DNA of 64,000 nt from Escherichia phage SP15, in the sequence record AP019559; one strand, written 5' to 3'. The notes under the pieces are model-generated. The model worked only from the letters and a program-made list of their open reading frames with translations, ran no database searches and was not told the DNA's origin. The stretch's first letter is position 1, and every line of letters begins with the position of its first letter. The position numbers and the translations under genes were made by a program. Below are positions 1,941 through 62,618 of this stretch, piece after piece.

Positions 1941-4376
1941 TTAAATAGTACAACCACCTGATGCACAACCGGCTGCTTCTTCTCCAGCACCACCACCATT
2001 TGCGGTGTTGAAGTTAGCATAATACCAAGTTTTCCACCCGTATTTAACAGCAGTCATGAAATCACGAACTACTACTGGGCCAGGAATAATTTCATTCTCA
2101 AACTTGGTGTAGTCGTAGTACATATTCGTACTGATAGACTGACTGAAGAATTTCTGCATAGTTGCTACCCATTTGATCCACTCGATACGATCTACATCAT
2201 AAGCCAGTTTATAGCTCATTAAAGTTTCCCAATCGGTTGCACCTGGAGCAATTGCAATTACTTTATTCACTGCACTACCCTTGATAGACACAATCTTACG
2301 AGGTGGTTCAATAGAGTTAGTAACCCCTAACAGAACGGAAGAACTTTCTCCCGGCATCTGCGCAGTCAGAACAGAGTTACGCATACCATATTTCAGAATA
2401 TCTGCACGTAGAGACTCCCAATCCATTTCTAGACCTACGGATACCAGTTCATCAACAGTTTTCTTGTATGTGTCGATTACCAGAATTCCTTTAGATGGTT
2501 TAGTACGATCAAACCACTCACATGCACCCTGTTCTTTAGCTAGGCGTACAGAGGCTTTATGCAGGAAGTAAGACAGTTTTTCAGCCTCACGGTGAATCCA
2601 GTTACGGGCTTCAATACCTTCATAAGCCAGACCTTCTGCTGCCATTGCACCTGCTGCGTTCATCAGGCCAATACCAACATTACGACGTTTCTTAGCCGTA
2701 TATTCCATAGTTGGGAACGGATAATCCTGAATTTCAATAATTGTATCAACGAATTTCAGGAGGATGTAGCAAGTTTTTTCCCACTCAGCCAGAGATTCCA
2801 TGCGTCCAAGTACAACACCACCTAAGTTACATAGAGATACTTCACCAATATCCTCCGGCTTCATTTGATCAAGTTGTTCTTTTGTTTTATACAGTTCCGT
2901 GATATGGTGGAACGGGCGTGTAGGCTGAGTAATCTCAACACAAAGGTTTGTCATACGGATCGGATCAAGGAAATTACCGTGACGATTAGATTCCCCGATG
3001 TGATGCGCATACATACGTCCTGTTTCCATTCGGATACGTAGCCAAGTATCTAGGATTTCTTTTGCAGAGACTTTAGGAGCTGCTGGAACTGTTTTTCCTT
3101 CGTGGTCGATCTTTGTAAGAGATGCCACACGTTTCTCCGCTGCCACGTAGATTTCTTCAAATTTAGCCTCGTCATCACTATAAAACGCTTCATGAACTTC
3201 TGGAGCATAGAAGTATGACATTAGCGTAATATCTTCGTTTTTAAGATAACGTTTTAACAAAAGATTGTTGAAGCTCAGAGAATAATCCATCTTATCGATT
3301 TTATTCTCATCTGTAGCACGTTGTTGCTTAACCTGCATCAATTGAATGATTTCAGGGTCGAAGTATGGATAAGATACTGTAGCAGAACCACCACGAGTTT
3401 GCTGAGTATTGGCCTTTACTGAGCGGTCAATGTGTCGATAATATGGCAGTTTTCCGGAATGCGGGAATGCCCCATTTCGCACCGGATCAGCAATTGATCG
3501 GCTTTCAAGATGATACCCGATTCCCGCTCTGGCTGCGACCATTTTGAAGACGATGTGCTCGGCGGTGTCGATTGAATCCAACGTGTCAGTGGAATCCACG
3601 AGACAGCAACTAGCAAATCCACGGTCACTAGAGCGCAGACCAACCAGTGGCGGCGTAGGAACGTTGATTTTGTGGAGTGACATTGCGTTGTAGAGGTCGA
3701 TTGCATCTAGAATTGTCCAGTTAGGTTGAGAAAGCATCGCCATTGCCATACCCATGTAGGCAAACTGCGGGGTTTCATAAATTTCACCAGTGGCTATATT
3801 ACGACGGGAATACTTATCAAAGAACTGCTTCAGCCCACCACTAGTAAAAAGACGGTCACGATCATGGTCGATAACCTGATTCAGAGCCTCAAATTGCTCA
3901 TCGGTAATCCATGCACTCATGTCTTCCCATGCACCTACGCTAACCATGTGGTCATGGAAGAAGCGTAGAGAAGGCGGTTCGAAAGAGTCATAAAGGCGTT
4001 TACGCATTTGCGCAAGACGTAATTCCTTTGCTGGCACATCGTATGCTGGGTTATCTTTGATAAGACTTTCAGCAGCTTTAATTAATGCGTCCATCAGAGT
4101 GTCGGAATCTACAACCCCTTTAGGTAGAGTTTTTTGAGCAGCCATAGTAATGGCGGACCAACTTACATCAACTGTTTTGCAACCATACTCTGCCCAACCA
4201 TTGAGTTTTTCAGGAGCAAAGTCTTCTACAGTACCGTCACGTTTAATTACTTTTTCAATGCGATGGCTCATTTGGCTTTCCTTTTTATAGTTATCAGGAT
4301 TTAAGGAATATTTTACTTTATTATCGGTCATTAGGCAAATAAAATTTTCTGATAGAAAAGGCCCGAGTATTTTCAT
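1941..4376 (-). CDS. nrdA: Ribonucleotide reductase class Ia large subunit
   Basis: 811 aa; N-terminal ATP-cone, active-site NLCVEITQPT, C-terminal Cys pair (CASGGC); exact start uncertain. Confidence 0.9.
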   Translation of the reverse strand: MKILGPFLSENFICLMTDNKVKYSLNPDNYKKESQMSHRIEKVIKRDGTVEDFAPEKLNGWAEYGCKTVDVSWSAITMAAQKTLPKGVVDSDTLMDALIKAAESLIKDNPAYDVPAKELRLAQMRKRLYDSFEPPSLRFFHDHMVSVGAWEDMSAWITDEQFEALNQVIDHDRDRLFTSGGLKQFFDKYSRRNIATGEIYETPQFAYMGMAMAMLSQPNWTILDAIDLYNAMSLHKINVPTPPLVGLRSSDRGFASCCLVDSTDTLDSIDTAEHIVFKMVAARAGIGYHLESRSIADPVRNGAFPHSGKLPYYRHIDRSVKANTQQTRGGSATVSYPYFDPEIIQLMQVKQQRATDENKIDKMDYSLSFNNLLLKRYLKNEDITLMSYFYAPEVHEAFYSDDEAKFEEIYVAAEKRVASLTKIDHEGKTVPAAPKVSAKEILDTWLRIRMETGRMYAHHIGESNRHGNFLDPIRMTNLCVEITQPTRPFHHITELYKTKEQLDQMKPEDIGEVSLCNLGGVVLGRMESLAEWEKTCYILLKFVDTIIEIQDYPFPTMEYTAKKRRNVGIGLMNAAGAMAAEGLAYEGIEARNWIHREAEKLSYFLHKASVRLAKEQGACEWFDRTKPSKGILVIDTYKKTVDELVSVGLEMDWESLRADILKYGMRNSVLTAQMPGESSSVLLGVTNSIEPPRKIVSIKGSAVNKVIAIAPGATDWETLMSYKLAYDVDRIEWIKWVATMQKFFSQSISTNMYYDYTKFENEIIPGPVVVRDFMTAVKYGWKTWYYANFNTANGGGAGEEAAGCASGGCTI

Positions 4377-8295: not shown

Positions 8296-8485
8296 GGGTT
8301 TAAACGCCGCTTTGGAAAACGCATTAATGCAGCACTGGGAAACTGGCTATAAGGATGGTGTTGAATCCTGCGCTACTATGCTAGAAGTTATTGCTAATAC
8401 CTTAATGGAGAAAGGCAATAAAGAATTAGCTGAGCTATTAGACAGTATTGGGCAAAACTTCAGAGAACAGGTGAAAAATGCGTAG
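8264..8485 (+). CDS. Hypothetical protein
   Basis: 73-aa ORF; stop overlaps start of Sir2-like gene (ATGCGTAG). Confidence 0.4.
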   Translation: MAFSKPMLPDKGLNAALENALMQHWETGYKDGVESCATMLEVIANTLMEKGNKELAELLDSIGQNFREQVKNA

Positions 8486-30503: not shown

Positions 30504-32322
30504 GACACTAAAATTTAGTAACGTTATGTCTTACGGTAAGGACATCGTAATTCATTTCGACAAGAATCCAGTTACTCAACTAATTGGTGGCAATGGGCTA
30601 GGGAAATCCACCATCGCTACGGTTATCGAGGAATTGTTTTATAACAAGAACTCACGGGGTATTAAGAAAGATGCTCTGTTCTCTTGGTCTTCTCCGAAAA
30701 AAGAGTATGATATGCACGCTTATTTCTCGAAAGATGAAGATGAGTATGAATTGCATAAAGTAGTTAAGTCAACTGCTAAAGTAACTCTTATTAAGAATGG
30801 GGAAGATATTAGTGGACACACGGCAACCCAAACATACAAGATGATTGAGGAGATTATGGGCGGTGACTTCCAAACATTCACCAAACTAATTTATCAATCA
30901 GTGGGTTCCAATCTAGACTTTCTAAAAGCAACAGATGCAACACGTAAGGCTTTTCTTGTCAACTTGTTCAATCAAGAACAGTATAAAGAAATGTCAGAAA
31001 CTATTAAGGCTGATCGTAAAGAAATAGCAAATACCTTAAATAATTTGCAGGGCCAAATGGCTGTAATTACGAAAATCCTTAATGGAAAGAATAATCTGGG
31101 AACTTTGCAGGAACCTGTAGAAGTACCAGAGTTTGATGAAGAGCCATTAGCACAAGAACTTACTGAATCGAAAATTAAGGCGGCATTAGCCAAGTCTCAA
31201 GAGGCTAATATTACTAAATTGCGTAATTTGGACAAAGCTGTACAAGTTGCCGAACAATCTTTCGAGCCTTTCAAAAATTTACCCGCGCCCACTGACCAAA
31301 ATGAAGAGATCTCGAGTGTTACGCGTGACCTAACGATTGTGACCTCACGTGCGAGCGAAGTTAAGAAACGTTATCAGAAGTTCAAGCAAGAGGCTTCAAA
31401 TACTGAATGTCCTACCTGTGGTACTCATCTGGATACAACTGCTGCGCAAAAAGCAATGGATATGGCTAGAACAGAATATGATCCTCTGTTCAAAGAGAAG
31501 CAATCTCTTGAAGCTAAGCTAGAACAGTTGAAGAAAGAACAACTTGAGTACGTTGCATATACTAGAGCAAGGGATGCTTTGGATAAGGCAGTAGCATCTA
31601 GAGACGAATTCAAAAATTCAATGAGTGATACTTCTTTTGAAGAACTCAATGTGCAAAACCTACAGGTGCAAATCCGACAACTAGAACAGGAAATCGCTGA
31701 TGGCCGTTCTAAGGTTGCAATTGCCAAAGAGCATAATGCAAATGTTGAATTAGCCAATGCAAAATATAAAGCGAAACTAGAACAGATTGAGAAAGCTGAG
31801 GCAGAAATGTCTGAGATTACTTCCAAACTGGATGGAGTATCAGAAGCTGTTGCTGATCTCGATATTCTGATTGCTGCATTGAAGAATCTAGTAGGATATA
31901 AACTAGAGCATAGTGTGAAAGTATTTGAAGAGCTTATCAATAAATACCTTTCTATTATGACTGGCGGTAAATTCGCACTTGGATTTGAACTTGATGAAAC
32001 AAAATTACAAGTAGTAATCTTCAATGATGGAAATCGTACCAGTATGGAGAACTGCTCTACTGGTCAACAGAGTCGAATTAACCTAGCAACCCTGTTAGCT
32101 ATTCGGATGCTGTTAACATCTATTAGTAAAGTTAATATTAATCTTCTATTCCTTGATGAAGTAATTAGCTTTATTGATACAAAAGGACTTGATACTCTTG
32201 TTGAATTATTAAATGAGGAAGAAAGTCTAAATTCTATCATTGTTTCTCATGGGCATACGCATCCATTAGCCCATAAGATTACTGTCAAAAAAGATGCAGA
32301 AGGATTTTCCTACTTAGAATAA
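30484..32322 (+). CDS. SbcC/Rad50-like recombination ATPase subunit
   Basis: N-terminal Walker A GGNGLGKST, long coiled coil, C-terminal LFLDE signature; start overlaps sbcD-like end. Confidence 0.8.
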   Translation: MSKITIKTLKFSNVMSYGKDIVIHFDKNPVTQLIGGNGLGKSTIATVIEELFYNKNSRGIKKDALFSWSSPKKEYDMHAYFSKDEDEYELHKVVKSTAKVTLIKNGEDISGHTATQTYKMIEEIMGGDFQTFTKLIYQSVGSNLDFLKATDATRKAFLVNLFNQEQYKEMSETIKADRKEIANTLNNLQGQMAVITKILNGKNNLGTLQEPVEVPEFDEEPLAQELTESKIKAALAKSQEANITKLRNLDKAVQVAEQSFEPFKNLPAPTDQNEEISSVTRDLTIVTSRASEVKKRYQKFKQEASNTECPTCGTHLDTTAAQKAMDMARTEYDPLFKEKQSLEAKLEQLKKEQLEYVAYTRARDALDKAVASRDEFKNSMSDTSFEELNVQNLQVQIRQLEQEIADGRSKVAIAKEHNANVELANAKYKAKLEQIEKAEAEMSEITSKLDGVSEAVADLDILIAALKNLVGYKLEHSVKVFEELINKYLSIMTGGKFALGFELDETKLQVVIFNDGNRTSMENCSTGQQSRINLATLLAIRMLLTSISKVNINLLFLDEVISFIDTKGLDTLVELLNEEESLNSIIVSHGHTHPLAHKITVKKDAEGFSYLE

Positions 32323-55596: not shown

Positions 55597-56088
55597 TTAG
55601 CCTCCAACACCAGGGTTAACTGTCACAGTACACGCAGTAGAATCCTTACTTACTCGCTTACTATCTGTTACAGTTACTTTATAAGAGCCGGCATCCTCAG
55701 CTGCTGCTGCAGGCTTAGTATATGTAGCTCCTGAAGCTTCCGGAATAGGGGAACCATCTTTAGTCCATGCATAAGTGTATGGACCAGTACCACCAGTTGC
55801 AGTAACAGAAAGAGTTAACGTTGCTCCAGTATCAACTGACATGCTAGCAGTTAAATCTTTAGAAAGAGTTAACGGTGGGGCCGGTGGAGCAGGAGGAACT
55901 GCTTTAACATAAGCCTCTACAAATTTCTTCCATACTTTACGGTTAGTATGCGCAGATGAAAGCCCTAGTTCTCTACGCAGAAAAGCATAGCTAGGAACAT
56001 ATTTATGCGCAGCAACCGTAGCAAAGAAGATATGAGATTCTGGCAGTTTTTCACCAAAAATGGTCTTTAGACCATTATAATCAATCAT
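55597..56088 (-). CDS. Capsid decoration protein (pb10-like) with C-terminal Ig-like domain
   Basis: 163 aa; Pro-rich linker PPAPPAPP then TLTLSVTATGGTGPYTYAW Ig-like segment. Confidence 0.7.
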   Translation of the reverse strand: MIDYNGLKTIFGEKLPESHIFFATVAAHKYVPSYAFLRRELGLSSAHTNRKVWKKFVEAYVKAVPPAPPAPPLTLSKDLTASMSVDTGATLTLSVTATGGTGPYTYAWTKDGSPIPEASGATYTKPAAAAEDAGSYKVTVTDSKRVSKDSTACTVTVNPGVGG

Positions 56089-57302
56089 TCTTTATCTCCC
56101 TCGGTGGAACCTTGAGGTCTACCACCTTCTTGACCAGATACACCTGTTGCAGAACCAGCAACGTTAGCAGGAATACGAATCCTATCCATCTGCTCATCAT
56201 CTAAAGGTTCAAGGTTCAGCTCTAAACGAGCTTCGTTACCAGTCATAATACCATTATTAACCAATGAGGTTAAATGTTTAGCCTCAGCTTCTTTATCTGG
56301 TGTTAATGCAGCTACCTCCTTAGTATTAGGGGTAATCTTATAACCAAAAAAGAAAGTAAGAGAACTAGTCAGTTTGTTCAGCATAGGAATGATAGTCATA
56401 TAATAGAACAATTCGATGTTTGGTCGAATATTCGCATTATTACCACCATCAAGTAGTACTTGCGGAACTCCAAAGGCTAGACAAATAGATTTATTAAATC
56501 CTTCGATGTCTTCCTTAAAGTCTAGATCTTTAAAAGAGGATATTTGGGAGTACGGTTTAGCTTTCATACCACCATCTAGAATCAGGACAGAAGACTGACC
56601 CGTACTAGGATTATAATCGAGTTGTAATTCTTCTTGTTTACGCTCACGCAATTTCTTGTTCAGGATTTCATCCGTTTCAAGAATAAGACCAATCACGGTT
56701 CCGTTATCGAGGAATTTCTCTTTAAAATTAAGCATCTTGGAACGCTTCTCAAGAGAATCAATAACAGTAGCAACACGAGATTGTCCAGAAATTTGAGAAT
56801 TTGTGCCACACACGTAACTGTTATCCTTTATAAAGATAATCTCATCTACGCGATAGTCTATCTGATTATTAAATATAAATTTTTTGATAAACTTATTGGC
56901 ATCTGCCTCGACCTGCATAAGAGCAGCCGGGACATGGTAAAGCGATGTGCCATCCCAATAGATGTACGCACAACCTTCAAAAAGTAGGTCAGTGACTACA
57001 AGTCTACGGAATGTGCTTATATCCATGAATGGATTAGGTCGTACATTTAAGAGAGTGTCTAGAGTCTTTGTCTTAACGCCATTAGCGTACGTAACAATAT
57101 TATATTTATCTCCGACAGTATAAGAACACTCCGCCGCACTATCTATAACCATATTGGCAGTTCGATTGAGAATCTCAATCTTGCTATAGGCTTGTCCAGT
57201 GGTAAAAGGCTTACGGTTAGTGCGATGACTAACTGGTTCCATGTCTCTTATAATACGTTGACCCGGATTTAACTTTTCAGTAATCCAGCTTTTTAAACCC
57301 AT
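56085..57302 (-). CDS. Portal protein (pb7-like)
   Basis: 405 aa, position between terminase and head genes. Confidence 0.75.
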   Translation of the reverse strand: MGLKSWITEKLNPGQRIIRDMEPVSHRTNRKPFTTGQAYSKIEILNRTANMVIDSAAECSYTVGDKYNIVTYANGVKTKTLDTLLNVRPNPFMDISTFRRLVVTDLLFEGCAYIYWDGTSLYHVPAALMQVEADANKFIKKFIFNNQIDYRVDEIIFIKDNSYVCGTNSQISGQSRVATVIDSLEKRSKMLNFKEKFLDNGTVIGLILETDEILNKKLRERKQEELQLDYNPSTGQSSVLILDGGMKAKPYSQISSFKDLDFKEDIEGFNKSICLAFGVPQVLLDGGNNANIRPNIELFYYMTIIPMLNKLTSSLTFFFGYKITPNTKEVAALTPDKEAEAKHLTSLVNNGIMTGNEARLELNLEPLDDEQMDRIRIPANVAGSATGVSGQEGGRPQGSTEGDKE

Positions 57303-57739
57303 TATAAGAACCTTGCGAATCCTGATTTTGTTTCAGTCTTGACTTGTGTCTTTTCTTGAGGATTCTGTAATTTGTCTTTCTGCTTTTGAACCCATGCTTT
57401 CTGTTTATTAGCAGAAAATAATGGAGGTTCTTTCGTGTAAACCTTATGTAATAGTTGGTGATGGTGCTGGCACAATGTTACCACGTCCCTAACTAACTCA
57501 TGCTCATATTTCTTGTAGAATGCTTCCCTATTTGAAAGGACGATATTCTCATCAGTGAAATCCAGCTGGAGTTCTTTAGCAAATTTTTTTATTAGCTGAG
57601 ATATAGTATGATAATGGTGAAGTTCTAGGTCTTCACTACTACCACATATAGCACAGCAACCATCCTTACTATACCTAGATTTTATGCCATCCCTCATTAT
57701 GGAAATGGCATCACGTTTGTACTTAGTATTAGTGGCCAT
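57302..57739 (-). CDS. Small HNH endonuclease
   Basis: CAICGSSEDLELHHYH...CQHHHQLLH HNH/zinc motif; start uncertain. Confidence 0.6.
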   Translation of the reverse strand: MATNTKYKRDAISIMRDGIKSRYSKDGCCAICGSSEDLELHHYHTISQLIKKFAKELQLDFTDENIVLSNREAFYKKYEHELVRDVVTLCQHHHQLLHKVYTKEPPLFSANKQKAWVQKQKDKLQNPQEKTQVKTETKSGFARFL

Positions 57740-58403
57740 AATCCTCCAATCCAAAGCTACTTAGAAAGATTACTATATTCTCGGGAGCAACATTAAAAAA
57801 TTCCGTGCTTCCTGTAAAATTAGAAAACCCACAGTTTTTATTATAATATTCTCTGTGAACTTCCTTTTCTAAATCTAAAGCAGTCTCTCTATCTGGCAGA
57901 TGATACATGGTGAACAAGTATAGATCAGAAAATCCAGATTCTCTTTTAACTTCATTCAGCCGTTTCTCAGGGTATAAGCTTATGCCTACTTTAGTACCCC
58001 TAGAGGAGGACATGATATAGAGGAACCCGCCATTCTCCCATTTAAGAGAACAATAAGGGCATCTCTTACCTTGAGTCAATCCATCTAAGGTAATGAAACA
58101 GTCATGCCCATTATTGCAGCGTAGATGTAGTTTTGTTTTAGCATTAGTATAGCTGCTTAACAGAGTATACCCTATATTAGATATTCTGTTACTAACTTCA
58201 TCTAACGATATTGTATTATTGGAGCAGTGTGGACAACCTCTCCTCATATGGAGTATAGAATGTGGTGTTGCTTCCCAAACGTGTGCTCTCTGGCATTTAA
58301 ATACTGTTTTTGTACGTTGGTTTACATATTCACCGATAATTTGGATTCCACGATCAGCTAATCTAATATTTATATCTTTTATTGTTAGCTTTTGTCGACC
58401 CAT
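57729..58403 (-). CDS. T5orf172/GIY-YIG-like nuclease domain protein with two N-terminal zinc-ribbon modules
   Basis: Paired CxxxH...CPHC and C...CPYC modules then GFLYIM...KVGIS...R...E segment; start at ATG after GGAG. Confidence 0.5.
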   Translation of the reverse strand: MGRQKLTIKDINIRLADRGIQIIGEYVNQRTKTVFKCQRAHVWEATPHSILHMRRGCPHCSNNTISLDEVSNRISNIGYTLLSSYTNAKTKLHLRCNNGHDCFITLDGLTQGKRCPYCSLKWENGGFLYIMSSSRGTKVGISLYPEKRLNEVKRESGFSDLYLFTMYHLPDRETALDLEKEVHREYYNKNCGFSNFTGSTEFFNVAPENIVIFLSSFGLEDYGH

Positions 58404-58573
58404 AGAATCTCCTACACCCATGTAGAGCATTAATTTTTCTTGTTTACGTTCTATTATGGGAGAAGTTCTCCCGATCAATGAATATAGTATACATAATCGT
58501 ATCGAATTTGTAAAGGGGATTTTAAAATACAGGAATGGGATACCAACTGAGTAGTATCCCATCCTATACTTAT

Positions 58574-59890
58574 TTATTTACCACGGGAAATAGAGTAAAT
58601 TCCATAGCGGAGCGCATCACAAAGGTGAGAGTTAGCATCATGACGTGGTTTTTCACGCGATAATTTCTCTTCGCCTTCTTGGAAGTCCCACTTATAGTTC
58701 TGCAATGCATGAATTAAGGAGGAACATGAGGCATCTACAATAATCTTGCCCTGCTGGAATAGCGCTTGCAAGCATGCTAGACCATCTAGGACAGATTTTT
58801 TAGCTGGAGCCGATGCAATTTCATGCTCATAAGCTAAGTCTTGACGGAACTGAGCTGCCGCGGAGTCAACAAAAATACGATCAACTTTATAACGATCTAT
58901 ACAGTGCTGAATATAAGCAGCATGCTGAGCTGTAGTTTTCTCCGCCTGCTGGTACTCTTCTAACACATAGTAAGTATCCGTATCGTAATGATATTTAATA
59001 GTAAGAACTGCTGTAGGATCACGATAACCAACGTCAATACCAAGCAACGTTTCGAATGCTTCATCATCTTTAAAGAAGTGACGCATACCTTTGAGATCTT
59101 TAACATGATCTATAGCATTGAAAGTATCAAATATCTGCCCTTCGAATACAGAGAAGTCAGCCTCGTATTCTTGGCGGAAATAGTTTTTACTAACTGTACG
59201 ACGTGCTTCCTCAATATCATTCAAATCAGCACGTGGGTTATCACGATATGTACCATGAATAGACACCCAGTTAGGTAATGTATCATCAAATCCATAGGCG
59301 TAAAACTCTTTAAACCAGTTACCCCCACGAGGGGTGGAAATAAATAGAGCCTTAGAATTAGGTTTATCTAGAGTAGGACGCAGCTGAACCCTGAAGGCAT
59401 CACCACCCACATCGGAAATTGCCGCCTCGTCAAAGATGATAAAATCATATGAACGTCCAACTGCGGAGTCAGCCTGAGCCGCGGAAGCTAGTTTAAATAG
59501 GGAACCGTTTGCCAGCTCAATCTCTTTATCTTTAGCATTCTCACGTTCTGTTTGCAACCCATACTTCTTAATAAGACCACGAATCTGAGACCATCCGATA
59601 TTAGCCAGTGAGTAGTTAGGGGCGACTACTAGTACCTTCACATTGGGTTCCAGCAATTTTAGGAACCCAAGTGTATACGCTATAAAAGATTTACCTACAC
59701 GGCGTGATACACACGCCGTTACAAAACGATGTCTAGGGTCTTCTAGGGCATTGATAATTGCTATTTGAGGGCCATTAGGTGTAATACCCTCTTGTGCTAG
59801 TATTCCGGAAACAGGTAAACGAAAGAAACGCTTATCTATTCCGAAATCAATAACATCTACTGTATTAACGTAGGGTCTTGATACTTCCAT
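58574..59890 (-). CDS. Terminase large subunit
   Basis: 438 aa; ATPase Walker A-like RVGKSF, Walker B IIFDEAA, C-terminal nuclease domain. Confidence 0.85.
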   Translation of the reverse strand: MEVSRPYVNTVDVIDFGIDKRFFRLPVSGILAQEGITPNGPQIAIINALEDPRHRFVTACVSRRVGKSFIAYTLGFLKLLEPNVKVLVVAPNYSLANIGWSQIRGLIKKYGLQTERENAKDKEIELANGSLFKLASAAQADSAVGRSYDFIIFDEAAISDVGGDAFRVQLRPTLDKPNSKALFISTPRGGNWFKEFYAYGFDDTLPNWVSIHGTYRDNPRADLNDIEEARRTVSKNYFRQEYEADFSVFEGQIFDTFNAIDHVKDLKGMRHFFKDDEAFETLLGIDVGYRDPTAVLTIKYHYDTDTYYVLEEYQQAEKTTAQHAAYIQHCIDRYKVDRIFVDSAAAQFRQDLAYEHEIASAPAKKSVLDGLACLQALFQQGKIIVDASCSSLIHALQNYKWDFQEGEEKLSREKPRHDANSHLCDALRYGIYSISRGK

Positions 59891-60372
59891 TACTTCTTAC
59901 CTCCAGTAGCTAGGGAAGTAATTAAGTCCATGTAGTTTTGATCCCCAGCTCCAGCAATAATGTTATTCTGGATATTAGTCTGATTAGCAGGAGCTCGAAC
60001 GGCAGCTTTAGCTTTTTCTAACTCCACCATCATTTTCATTTCTTCCATCTTCATTTTGTGAGCTTTCCATAGAATATCCATAATATCTTGGTCAGAACCC
60101 ATGCCAGTTTCTTCTAGCTCTTCTAGCTTACGCTTAATAACTTCATCTAGAACACCGAACAAACGATCTCTATTACGGAATCCACTCTCCATAAAAATAT
60201 CGTTTAAGTAGTTCTTAACTTCACTACGATTCATAATATCTCGGAAAGCAATTTCGGACATTCCAAGACTACGTGCGGCAGAAGGCACATCGCTGCCACA
60301 CTGTAAATAAGCTTCAATCACATCCATCCCTTCAGGGGACATAAGATCTGGTACTAATACATCATTTGCCAT
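59890..60372 (-). CDS. Terminase small subunit
   Basis: 160 aa immediately upstream of large subunit, strong RBS AGGAGG. Confidence 0.6.
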
Positions 60373-60382
60373 ATTTCCTCCT

Positions 60383-62305
60383 TTAGGTAAGGCGTTGAAT
60401 TATAAGTTTAATATTTGGTAAGCATGCTTTCATGCCAATTATATTGCTCATAGAGGATTCTAACCAAATAGAGATATTATTATTTCCATCATTTCTCATA
60501 TAGTATGTTAGAGTATAGTAACCCGTTTGACCTACGGATCCTGGCAACCCAGATACCCAGTATGGAGTTGGAGTATACCCAGCAGCCTGTAATTTACAAG
60601 CATTTACTACAGTACCTTTAATAGTAAAAAATGGTACATATTCTCCTGCAGGTAGGGACAATATTTGGTGAAGTTTTTTATCAATAGTATTGCCACCCAT
60701 TCTAAACCTACTATCGCCATATTCAGCGCCTTTAGATAGCATTTCCGTAGGATTAAAGCAGCCAATACCTCCTGCAGACAACCATGTGTCATCTAGGAAC
60801 TCCATAGTACATACAATTGCACCATTTCTACTACTATTAAGATCTAGTCCCACGGTACCAACATGCACGGAACCATTACCCTGAAATACTATGTTACCAG
60901 ATAGTACAGTACTTCCGCTACCACCTAGAAGTCTTAAAGGTAGAAGATTTTCACTCCAAACGTCCCCATAATTACTCCCTATTTTTGGAGGATTACTAGA
61001 AACATACCAAGATGCTGAAGGTAAAAAGTTATAAATACTAACTACATTAGTATTTAAACCACCAACGTTACCACCCTTAATACTTGGTGCGTTATTGCTT
61101 TCTGTGGTTGGTAGTCCAAATGTTGCTATGCCAGAGATCCCAGTAGAGGGGCCACCCATACTCAAGTTACACCCAACATCACGAAAATCAGCTCTGCTCC
61201 CTACATTAAAGTTTTTCTCAACAAAGTTAATAAACTTCCACGACGTATTATTAACGTTAACCCCTTTAATAATAAATTCTCTTGGACTAAGTTTAATATC
61301 ATTGCCAGTAAATAGCCCACTATCGATACTGTATCCTGAGCCATTGTATACTAGATTGGTAACATACCAAGTAATTTTAGATGGATAAATACCGAGGTGC
61401 TCACTATATATACCTATGGGCCCATTAGCAGCATCATTCGGATCACCCATACTTTCCCAATACGCATAGTTAGTGGGATCAGCACGTGCGAAACCTACAG
61501 AGTACTTAGGAGCCGAGGGATTGCTAGGATTAGACATAAAGTTAAGAGCCCCTGAACTCGACGCCCCATGTACAGCTCCAGCAGTGGTGTAGTTGGGCCC
61601 TTCCATACCATAAAGAACTCTATTACAAGACCTACCACGAACATATATGGCGTTAAATCCAAAGTTTCTAGCTCCGGGATGCCTAACGTAGTCGCTAGGG
61701 ATAGTTAGAGTTCCTGAATCCGGCACTACATATCCTGAACCATCCCAGGCAGACTTATAAAGAGCGGCACCTCCTAAATACATTGCACTAGATGCAAACC
61801 CTCTACGCCCACTAAAGGCGCCAAACATATGCTGACATCCAGTACCGTCTCTTAATTTCTGGGGGATAGTTCCACTAGTACCACTATTAAAATAGCCCAC
61901 ATCAAGAGATAGATCAGCACTAGCTGTTATTTGTGTTTTTAAACCACCTTGAGACATGACCTGCGGATTTATAATTCCATACGCTTTAGCCCCTACCCCC
62001 ATAGACATGCCAGATAACATATGTCTAGAGCCATCAGAAAACTCAATTTCTGTTAGCACAACTCTATTGGGGTCATTATTATGTAACTGGGTAATTCTGC
62101 TAGGCATATCAGACCAGTAGTAATCTCCAGCACCTTGATCTAGCCTCAACCCTGTGGAGTGAGTTTCTGTTATGATAACATGGGGCATATCTGAATGGAA
62201 TATGGTCTGAGAGTCAGGATTAATATGTTGATTAGTATCTCCGCCACTACCCCTTCGCAGTGAGAGTATAGATTTGTTATTTAGCTTACCAGCGAAAAAA
62301 CTCAT
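60383..62305 (-). CDS. oad: Receptor-binding tail protein pb5-like
   Basis: 640 aa, divergently adjacent to llp-like lipoprotein gene as in T5. Confidence 0.65.
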
Positions 62306-62324
62306 AAGTTCTCCAAAAATTTAG

Positions 62325-62353
62325 TTGCTTATACTGCCATAATTCTGTATAAT
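62325..62353 (+). promoter_or_regulatory. T5-type early promoter (TTGCTT, 17 nt, TATAAT) driving llp
   Basis: Consensus hexamers 30 nt upstream of llp RBS AGAGGAG. Confidence 0.6.
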
Positions 62354-62384
62354 AGTATTATAAATTAAATAGAGGAGAATGTAA

Positions 62385-62618
62385 ATGAAAAAATTATTTT
62401 TAGCTCTGGCAGTGGTACTTCTTTCGGCTTGCTCTACTTTTGGGCCTAAAGATATTAAATGTGAGGCCTACTATGTACAAGATCATGTGAAATATAAGGC
62501 TAATGTTTTTGATAGAAAAGGGGATATGTTCCTGGTGGCACCAATCATGGCCTATGGATCTTTCTGGGCTCCAGTAAGCTACTTTACCGAGGGGAATACA
62601 TGTGAAGGAGTTTTCTAA
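62385..62618 (+). CDS. llp: Lytic conversion lipoprotein precursor (Llp-like)
   Basis: 77 aa; signal peptide with lipobox LLSAC; divergent from pb5-like gene. Confidence 0.75.
   Translation: MKKLFLALAVVLLSACSTFGPKDIKCEAYYVQDHVKYKANVFDRKGDMFLVAPIMAYGSFWAPVSYFTEGNTCEGVF

Follow-up and report, generated by a model that had tools for sequence, protein, structure and literature searches.

A T5-like phage has the predicted nickase gene sciA and a putative homing endonuclease gene between its terminase and portal genes

The interval between the terminase large subunit and portal genes of the T5-like phage considered here very likely holds two mutually unrelated nuclease genes: sciA, which specifies a nickase, and an optional homing-type gene, referred to below as ORF B. 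The overall finding is an ordinary one, both genes being already known and present in the T5 reference genome. We set out the identity of each gene, the distribution of ORF B among relatives, and the sharply bounded stretch of sciA that accompanies it.

Results

The window, a stretch of 64,000 nucleotides from Escherichia phage SP15 (AP019559), derives from a Tequintavirus, a close relative of T5 to which it is approximately 96–97% identical. Two open reading frames lie on the minus strand between the terminase large subunit gene (58574–59890; Pfam Terminase_6N and 6C) and the portal gene (56085–57302; Pfam Phage_portal, 9e-51). A first-pass annotation, made from the letters alone, had placed two nuclease-like genes between portal and terminase; both frames, coordinates included, and both flanking genes are confirmed. 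Its description of the pair as inserted stands for ORF B, an addition when set against close relatives, but not for the smaller frame (ORF A, here sciA), which is found at this position in the T5-like genomes examined. A tblastn search with the two proteins revealed no paralogues elsewhere within the window.

The smaller gene, sciA (57302..57739, minus strand), encodes a predicted site-specific nicking endonuclease of 145 amino acids. A GGAGG ribosome-binding site precedes the ATG, and the stop codon shares one nucleotide with the portal ATG. The product is identical to the T5 protein at 144 of 145 residues, the sole substitution being at position 124, and matches PDB entries 9qgv and 9qgx at 99% identity over residues 1–143 (E = 2e-67). 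These entries (release March 2026) bear the title "SciA(H42Q/H42A) endonuclease from phage T5 with GCGC DNA"; the catalytic residue, His42 (57614–57616, minus strand), is mutated in both crystal constructs, and the fold predicted for the window protein matches that of the solved T5 enzyme. Judged by sequence, SciA is the T5 nicking endonuclease, named for the single-chain interruptions of T5. The role of nickase rests on the PDB titles, on GenBank and UniRef names, and on older sciA/sciB genetics cited in PMC3517423. Our literature search found no publication behind 9qgv and 9qgx, nor the source of the label 'nicking site-specific endonuclease'; a retron Eco2 paper and a preprint on host-DNA degradation by T5 had no bearing on SciA. 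In many GenBank records, RefSeq T5 included, sciA is still 'hypothetical'.

SciA carries the motif C-x2-C...HH...C-x2-H-H-x3-H. The elements that the first-pass annotation had picked out (CAICG...HHYH...CQHHH) are present and conserved: C29, C32, H41, H42, C90, H93, H94 and H98 are invariant across 26 homologues with identity down to 39%, and C29, C32, C90 and H93 are putative zinc ligands. The call of an HNH-type nuclease is borne out by the motif, and that of a nuclease by the identity of the protein with SciA. Searched against Pfam, SciA gave nothing with E < 0.1, and an NCBIfam scan was likewise without a match at threshold. The HNH_2 model gave E = 0.5 with the window protein and at best 0.037, below threshold, among the 26 family members. 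PHROG 8048, 'HNH endonuclease', matches residues 29–104 (2e-7), while fold searches produced no significant link to other HNH enzymes. Sub-threshold in the Pfam HNH comparison and yet a nuclease, SciA is a case in which the rule offered with the first-pass annotation – that domain searches without support for a nuclease fold speak against a nuclease – would have misled.

We also considered SciA as a candidate for the group of packaging HNH proteins typified by HK97 gp74 and rejected it. Alignment of the SciA profile with gp74 by hhalign gave a probability of 1.1% with just 10 columns aligned; with no relationship detectable, SciA is left out of that group.

Across phages sciA was found in 898 records, apparently all T5-like (Demerecviridae); it is full length in 897 of these and essentially single copy per record. 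PF26848 is assigned to 74 of 74 SciA homologues in precomputed annotations, and the slot between terminase and portal is shared by T5, BF23, SPC35, DT57C and one Sugarlandvirus. Being a single-copy core gene in the 898 records, sciA is not a mobile insertion, and the suggestion that ORF A might be a selfish homing element falls away.

ORF B (57729..58403, minus strand) encodes a putative free-standing T5orf172-type homing endonuclease of 224 amino acids. It is the orthologue of T5.154 ('YomD-like'), with 97–98% identity; the annotated start of T5.154 in RefSeq is probably 53 codons too long. The ATG of ORF B is preceded by GGAG, and its stop codon overlaps the start of sciA by 11 nt. The protein matches PHROG 681, 'endonuclease' (3e-59), and exceeds the Pfam thresholds for T5orf172, MUG113, the DUF4379 treble-clef zinc finger and the CapR zinc finger, in keeping with the earlier reading of a T5orf172/GIY-YIG-like protein with two zinc-ribbon modules. 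The nuclease domain, of the GIY-YIG clan, occupies residues ~126–210 (57774..58028, minus strand): PF10544 scores 33.8 bits (5e-8; cut-off 20) and MUG113 33.6 (cut-off 22.3). Its core motifs LYI, K-V-G-I-S, R and T-E-F-F align with those of homologues, and the top two Foldseek matches, though weak (E 0.1–0.2), are the GIY-YIG proteins 1zg2 and Slx1 (7cq2).

Ahead of the nuclease domain ORF B has two tandem zinc-ribbon modules of the treble-clef, CapR/DUF4379-like kind (58044..58391, minus strand; residues ~5–62 and 64–120), recognized by DUF4379 (3e-7) and, in two stretches, by CapR (5e-8). The C-x3-H...C-x2-C ligands are invariant in both (C37/H41/C57/C60 and C96/H100/C115/C118), and each module is modelled as a helix with beta-hairpins. 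Together they are presumed to form the DNA-binding part of the protein.

Compared by presence and absence across relatives, as the first-pass annotation had advised, sciA is core (the 898 records above) and ORF B variable: among 440 T5-like records matching the region ORF B is intact in 72, and approximately 360 keep only a 96-bp terminator/promoter piece. In most matching records the site is empty and the promoter directly abuts sciA. Alignment of filled and empty sites defines both junctions and places the start of the insertion 8 nt past the -10 box. Pseudogene remnants of ORF B, with ATG changed to ACG and with internal deletions, are found in DT57C, Gostya9 and SA001. A homologue of 53% identity occupies the same slot in a different genus, which could have come about by repeated site-specific invasion or from an ancient insertion that has since been lost many times.

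Genes of the T5orf172 type with repeated CapR-like zinc fingers have been described as homing endonuclease genes; T5-like phages have many of them, and terminase genes are their most frequent neighbours (PMC10448857). The sporadic presence of ORF B, its remnants and its empty sites fit that description of free-standing elements, and we conclude that ORF B is probably an optional, selfish endonuclease gene of the T5orf172 type. The notion of a selfish homing element, misplaced for sciA, thus fits ORF B well.

Upstream of ORF B, directly past the terminase large subunit stop codon, is a terminator-like hairpin (58533..58564, minus strand) with a 13-bp stem followed by a T-run (-25 kcal/mol, z = -6.2); it falls within the 96 bp conserved in approximately 440 T5-like records. 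Next to it lies a sigma-70-type promoter-like site (58486..58514, minus strand), TTTACA and TATACT with a 17-nt spacer, which matches the consensus at 10 of 12 positions and is annotated as 'promoter' in the Bf23 record. Such a site would drive sciA in phages with an empty site, and ORF B together with sciA here. The 5' leader of the ORF B cassette (58404..58477, minus strand) is missing from empty sites in the filled/empty alignment. In the predicted RNA fold of 58390–58480 (-21.8 kcal/mol, z = -2.45; 4 of 200 shuffles as good) an anti-SD segment of the leader, CUUCUCC, would pair with the ribosome-binding site of ORF B. ORF B has inserted downstream of the sciA promoter and ahead of the start codon of sciA, and the 3' end of ORF B supplies the ribosome-binding site of sciA.

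The neighbouring part of sciA is mosaic. A divergent 5' tract, comprising codons 1–91 (57467..57739, minus strand; mosaic edge at 57467), travels with ORF B. In comparison with BF23, 52 of the 56 codon differences in sciA fall within these codons, whereas the portal and terminase flanks are mostly 92–100% identical and the sequence just beyond the tract is 98–100% identical. One end of the tract coincides with the ORF B junction; the other is an abrupt break within sciA. The T5-type tract is present in exactly 81 phage records, and all of those checked have ORF B or its remnant; the two classes of SciA allele differ by 24 amino acids in the 91 residues. We found no description in the literature of ORF B being linked to the divergent allele in codons 1–91 of sciA. 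From its sequence, the sharply bounded tract looks like the product of homing co-conversion.

Since SciA is nearly identical to the crystallized T5 enzyme, it is expected to nick GCGC-containing sites. One candidate, GTGG/GCGCGGG (the stroke marks the nick), lies in gene D13 (31282..31289, minus strand) and was recognized by motif search and by homology to a T5 site; the nick would fall on the minus strand between 31289 and 31288. At the homologous position the T5 record AY543070 has a 'major DNA single-chain interruption', an annotation that is itself a consensus match. RGCGCRGG occurs twice in the window against 1.6 occurrences expected by chance, a count that is uninformative alone; it is the annotated T5 counterpart alone that gives the site meaning. 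The D13 site is also kept in BF23. The idea of different target sites for the two SciA allele classes accordingly finds no support, the shared site giving no evidence of altered specificity.

Discussion

SciA would be a small, zinc-containing, HNH-like nickase, the product of a late gene that is core in T5-like phages (Demerecviridae). It would recognize GCGC-containing sites and cut one strand, and such cuts would give the fixed interruptions characteristic of T5 virion DNA. The analysis establishes which protein SciA is, which domains ORF B contains, how ORF B is distributed and decays, and where the mosaic boundary lies; for ORF B we infer nuclease activity, target and homing. In a mixed infection ORF B would cut the allele that lacks it, at a target within or close to the 5' part of sciA, and repair templated by the ORF-B-bearing genome would carry over ORF B along with the 273 nt of sciA next to it; co-conversion of this kind would explain the sharply bounded tract that accompanies ORF B. 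We advance tentatively, as a possibility short of an even chance, the full proposal that homing of ORF B starts with a cut in the 5' part of sciA in phages without ORF B, that each invasion swaps the N-terminal two-thirds of the nickase for the donor version, and that the allele classes may differ in nick-site preference. If true, the replaced part of SciA would include the catalytic hairpin and the helical insertion, and a selfish endonuclease would be driving allele replacement of a second endonuclease that benefits the phage.

The sciA tract could instead reflect ordinary mosaicism, an old recombination event whose link with ORF B is mere adjacency. T5-like genomes are mosaic, and other parts of the region also vary in their identity to T5 and SPC35; subgroups with ~90% identity in ORF B show ~94% in the sciA tract, as simple linkage predicts, and the association of alleles could stem from shared descent in one clade plus a single old recombination. 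Yet the tract runs from the exact ORF B junction to an abrupt end in sciA, with 98–100% identity to BF23 beyond, and every tract record checked has ORF B or its remnant alongside; we regard mere adjacency as rather unlikely, if a serious contender. A different kind of doubt concerns ORF B itself, which might be a domesticated accessory – a regulator, or a nuclease that targets competitors or satellites – kept for the benefit of some lineages and not mobile. T5orf172 domains have indeed been recruited for anti-satellite nucleases, phage satellites use related CapR zinc fingers to bind DNA (PMC10448857), and ORF B is embedded in a late operon on a transcript common with sciA. But most close relatives are without ORF B and several have decayed remnants, which is the life cycle of a selfish element, and homing typically leaves a sharply bounded, co-inherited tract at the flank; domestication therefore seems improbable.

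The position of sciA invites one further reading, in which SciA is mainly a packaging accessory that cuts concatemers together with terminase and portal, nicks being a by-product. HK97 gp74 is the prototype of packaging HNH proteins, and related proteins occur in phage packaging modules (Kala et al. 2014, cited in PMC5714182). sciA sits between the terminase large subunit and an HK97-family portal; moreover, in older T5 records the gene for the small terminase subunit is labelled 'sciB', the name of the second locus needed for nicks, a hint of a link between nicking and the packaging machinery. Set against this are the lack of a detectable sequence relationship to gp74 (hhalign probability 1%), the solved structures and record names, which point to a site-specific nickase, and the reported viability of nick-less T5 mutants (PMC3517423), which implies that the nicking function is dispensable. 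We hold a mainly packaging role to be quite doubtful, and the helper function in packaging cleavage once suggested for ORF A is not supported, SciA being a named nickase without detectable similarity to gp74.

Taking SciA as a site-specific nickase and ORF B as a homing-type gene, the locus has little weight as discovery: structures of SciA have been solved by crystallography, and phage homing genes of the kind to which ORF B belongs have already been described. There is value for annotation, the small frame being the SciA nickase and not a generic or homing HNH gene. The linkage of ORF B with the sciA tract, moreover, offers a concrete and testable case in which the edge of a recombined segment within a functional neighbour gene is marked by a homing endonuclease gene.

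Among known systems the closest is T5 SciA itself (T5.153, ORF142 or T5p149; PDB 9qgv, 9qgx), which has the same length, slot, catalytic H42 and Cys/His ligands and a fold matching that predicted here; L124 in place of the I124 of T5 is the only difference of note. As a small, putatively HNH-type zinc protein whose gene adjoins those for the terminase and an HK97-type portal, SciA resembles HK97 gp74, but the two share no detectable sequence similarity, the beta-hairpin and helix of the SciA motif are separated by an insertion of ~45 residues, and SciA is named as a site-specific nickase for internal genome sites.

The Seg proteins of T4 are free-standing GIY-YIG homing endonucleases. ORF B is like them in its intergenic insertion by essential genes, in combining a GIY-YIG-clan nuclease with a separate DNA-binding part and, as far as sequence can indicate, in the co-conversion of flanking markers; it differs in belonging to the T5orf172 subfamily, with K-V-G and not Y-I-G as second motif, and in having zinc ribbons as its DNA-binding part. 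ORF B also has counterparts in T5.154 and in the T5orf172 homing genes described for ICP1 and for T5-like phages (Barth et al. 2023, PMC10448857), which share with ORF B the repeated CapR/DUF4379-type zinc fingers, the C-terminal T5orf172 domain, and a variable, decaying presence adjoining a terminase gene. What sets the present case apart is that the homing of ORF B is putative and that the co-inherited flank lies inside another nuclease gene, sciA.

Genomic context and gene boundaries

In nucleotide sequence the region shares 96–97% identity with T5 and the phages nearest to it (453 phage records match), and it shows the T5-like gene order; on these sequence grounds we assign the window to Tequintavirus. 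All genes concerned lie on the minus strand: the receptor-binding protein pb5 (60383–62305), the small (59890–60372) and large (58574–59890) terminase subunits, ORF B (57729–58403; 224 aa), ORF A (57302–57739; 145 aa) and the portal (56085–57302), followed downstream by the decoration protein, protease and major capsid protein. The orthologues of ORF A and ORF B in the T5 reference genome are T5.153 and T5.154, respectively. The 640-aa pb5 and, transcribed in the opposite direction, the 77-aa lipoprotein Llp (MKKLFLALAVVLLSAC...) together occupy 60383–62618 in a T5-like layout, which suggests that SP15 uses the T5-type receptor, FhuA. Some short records named as Listeria, Corynebacterium, Campylobacter or Klebsiella phage contain near-identical T5-like sequence, and one Enterococcus entry (P0063), a partial "PhoH family protein", matches a stretch of SciA at 100% identity; all of these appear to be contaminated or mislabelled.

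Both ORFs are real and lie where the first-pass annotation had placed them. ORF A begins with an ATG at 57739, preceded by GGAGG, and its stop codon shares one base with the start of the portal gene; ORF B begins with an ATG at 58403, preceded by GGAG, and overlaps the start of ORF A by 11 nt. The T5 RefSeq entry gives T5.154 as 277 aa (NC_005859; 4730–5563 of the extracted locus), with the remark "contains single transmembrane domain"; the 53 additional codons cross the terminase terminator hairpin and promoter. The 224-aa form is used in AY587007, IrisVonRoten and the protein database, and we consider its start, with the GGAG ribosome-binding site, more likely than that in RefSeq.

ORF A corresponds to the T5 nickase SciA

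Scans of ORF A against Pfam (no match with E below 0.1) and NCBIfam gave no assignment, and PHROGs returned one family of unknown function together with a weak HNH family (2e-7). A profile built from 26 homologues, however, matches two PDB entries, 9qgv and 9qgx (E 2e-67; released 25 March 2026), which are structures of T5 SciA with GCGC DNA, and a single residue separates the window protein from T5 SciA. In the records of DT57C and Gostya9 the gene appears as sciA and is described as "nicking site-specific endonuclease (T5p149, ORF142)"; the UniRef family is named "Nicking endonuclease". By homology, then, ORF A is SciA, the conserved nickase already known from T5. The single-chain interruptions at fixed positions in T5 DNA depend on the sci genes, and T5 mutants lacking the nicks are viable (PMC3517423).

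The HNH-type motif reported from the sequence is real, and is invariant across the 26 homologues: C29-x2-C32, H41-H42 and C90-x2-H93-H94-x3-H98. The crystal constructs were inactivated at H42. Between the motif hairpin and the motif helix lies an insertion of about 45 helical residues, the usual HNH asparagine position is not conserved across the homologues, and the Pfam HNH models remain below threshold (HNH_2, E 0.5). Because the motif and H42 are present but the Pfam models fall short, we call SciA HNH-like by motif and catalytic residue only.

In the T5 record AY543070 a "major DNA single-chain interruption" is marked at 78573/78574 on the minus strand, in gene D13, a position assigned by consensus match. 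Its homologue in the window, GTGG/GCGCGGG at 31282–31289 (minus strand), is also kept in BF23 and is a likely SciA nick site. RGCGCRGG occurs at just one further place in the window (AGCGCAGG; 8367–8374, minus strand, as for the D13 site), which is not known to coincide with any of the five major nicks classically mapped in T5; with 1.6 matches expected by chance in the window, this second match may be either a minor site of nicking or a coincidence.

Neither mobility nor packaging assistance is indicated by the distribution and profile of SciA

The gene is found in 898 phage records (tblastn), 897 of which have it at full length, with essentially one copy in each; the hosts of these phages include Escherichia, Salmonella, Klebsiella, Proteus and Vibrio. 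All genomes inspected have it between terminase and portal, and a published network analysis counts the nicking endonuclease among the signature genes of the T5-like group (PMC4981718). We therefore conclude that sciA belongs to the core genes and is no homing element.

The prototype packaging HNH protein is gp74 of phage HK97; a profile comparison of SciA with gp74 revealed no relationship (probability 1%). Older records for T5, SPC35 and DT57C call the small terminase gene (59890–60372, minus strand) "sciB" or "SciB protein", a label that hints at a link between SciA and packaging and which we treat as a lead only. Should the early mapping of sciB be correct, SciA would need the small terminase subunit in order to nick, and nicking would be tied to packaging.

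ORF B is a sporadically occurring T5orf172-type gene

ORF B matches T5orf172 (5e-8), MUG113, DUF4379 and CapR in Pfam, all beyond the cut-offs, and its conserved features are two C-x3-H...C-x2-C zinc modules followed by the T5orf172 core motifs. The best two PDB neighbours of its structure model (pLDDT 82) are the GIY-YIG proteins 1zg2 and Slx1, both weak (E 0.1–0.2). From its domains, ORF B is classed as a T5orf172-type endonuclease gene. T5-like phages, and other phages too, have many paralogues with 25–38% identity at other loci; tblastn found none within the window.

The interval between terminase and sciA (57740–58573) matches 440 T5-like records (blastn), of which only 72 cover at least 80%. 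Some 360 retain just the 96 bp adjoining the terminase stop (58478–58573), a piece that contains a strong terminator hairpin (z −6.2) and a TTTACA-17-TATACT promoter, annotated as such in the Bf23 record. In the empty site of BF23 and SPC35 this piece is followed by 18 nt and then the sciA ATG, the junction being TATACTATATTCAT joined to ACAGTTGAGGAGAACACTATG. Remnants of ORF B of about 518 bp persist in DT57C, Gostya9 and SA001; that of DT57C has its start codon changed to ACG and carries internal deletions. In the Klebsiella phage AmPh_EK80 a homologue with 53% identity (2501–3181 of the extracted locus) occupies the corresponding slot and likewise overlaps sciA by 11 nt. This phage belongs to a different genus, Sugarlandvirus, so that either a single site has been invaded repeatedly or an ancient insertion has since been lost many times.

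In SP15, transcription from the conserved promoter would pass through ORF B into sciA, the ribosome-binding site of which lies within the 3' end of ORF B. In a 74-nt leader specific to the cassette (58390–58480 folded, minus strand), CUUCUCC is predicted to pair with the ribosome-binding site and start codon of ORF B (−21.8 kcal/mol, z −2.45). Such pairing would fit restrained translation, and may hold in check a potentially harmful nuclease.

ORF B and part of sciA form one block

Compared in 200-nt windows with BF23, which lacks ORF B, the portal is 96–100% and the large terminase gene 92–99% identical, while the 5' part of sciA is about 80% identical or does not align. Differences affect 56 sciA codons, 52 of them in codons 1–91 and four in codons 92–145, placing a mosaic edge at nucleotide 273 of sciA (window position 57467). 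Exactly 81 records match the 273-nt tract (megablast), which is also the number with at least 95% SciA protein identity, and among the matches listed and checked the tract comes with ORF B or a remnant of it. A single inherited block of about 1 kb (57467–58477) thus comprises ORF B together with the 5' two-thirds of sciA.

A block of this kind is as expected if ORF B were to cut, near this point, the allele that lacks it, with donor flank co-converted during repair. Alternatively, simple linkage after an old recombination event would explain the same block.

The first-pass annotation, which saw two nuclease genes serving either as packaging helpers or as selfish homing elements, was correct in nuclease type and, for ORF B, in selfishness; it had not recognized ORF A as SciA. 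Both genes are already known, and the allele linkage is a small observation of which we found no earlier description. The exact architecture of ORF B is that of a described class of homing endonuclease genes, one that T5-like phages carry in abundance and that is commonest near terminase genes (Barth et al. 2023, PMC10448857).
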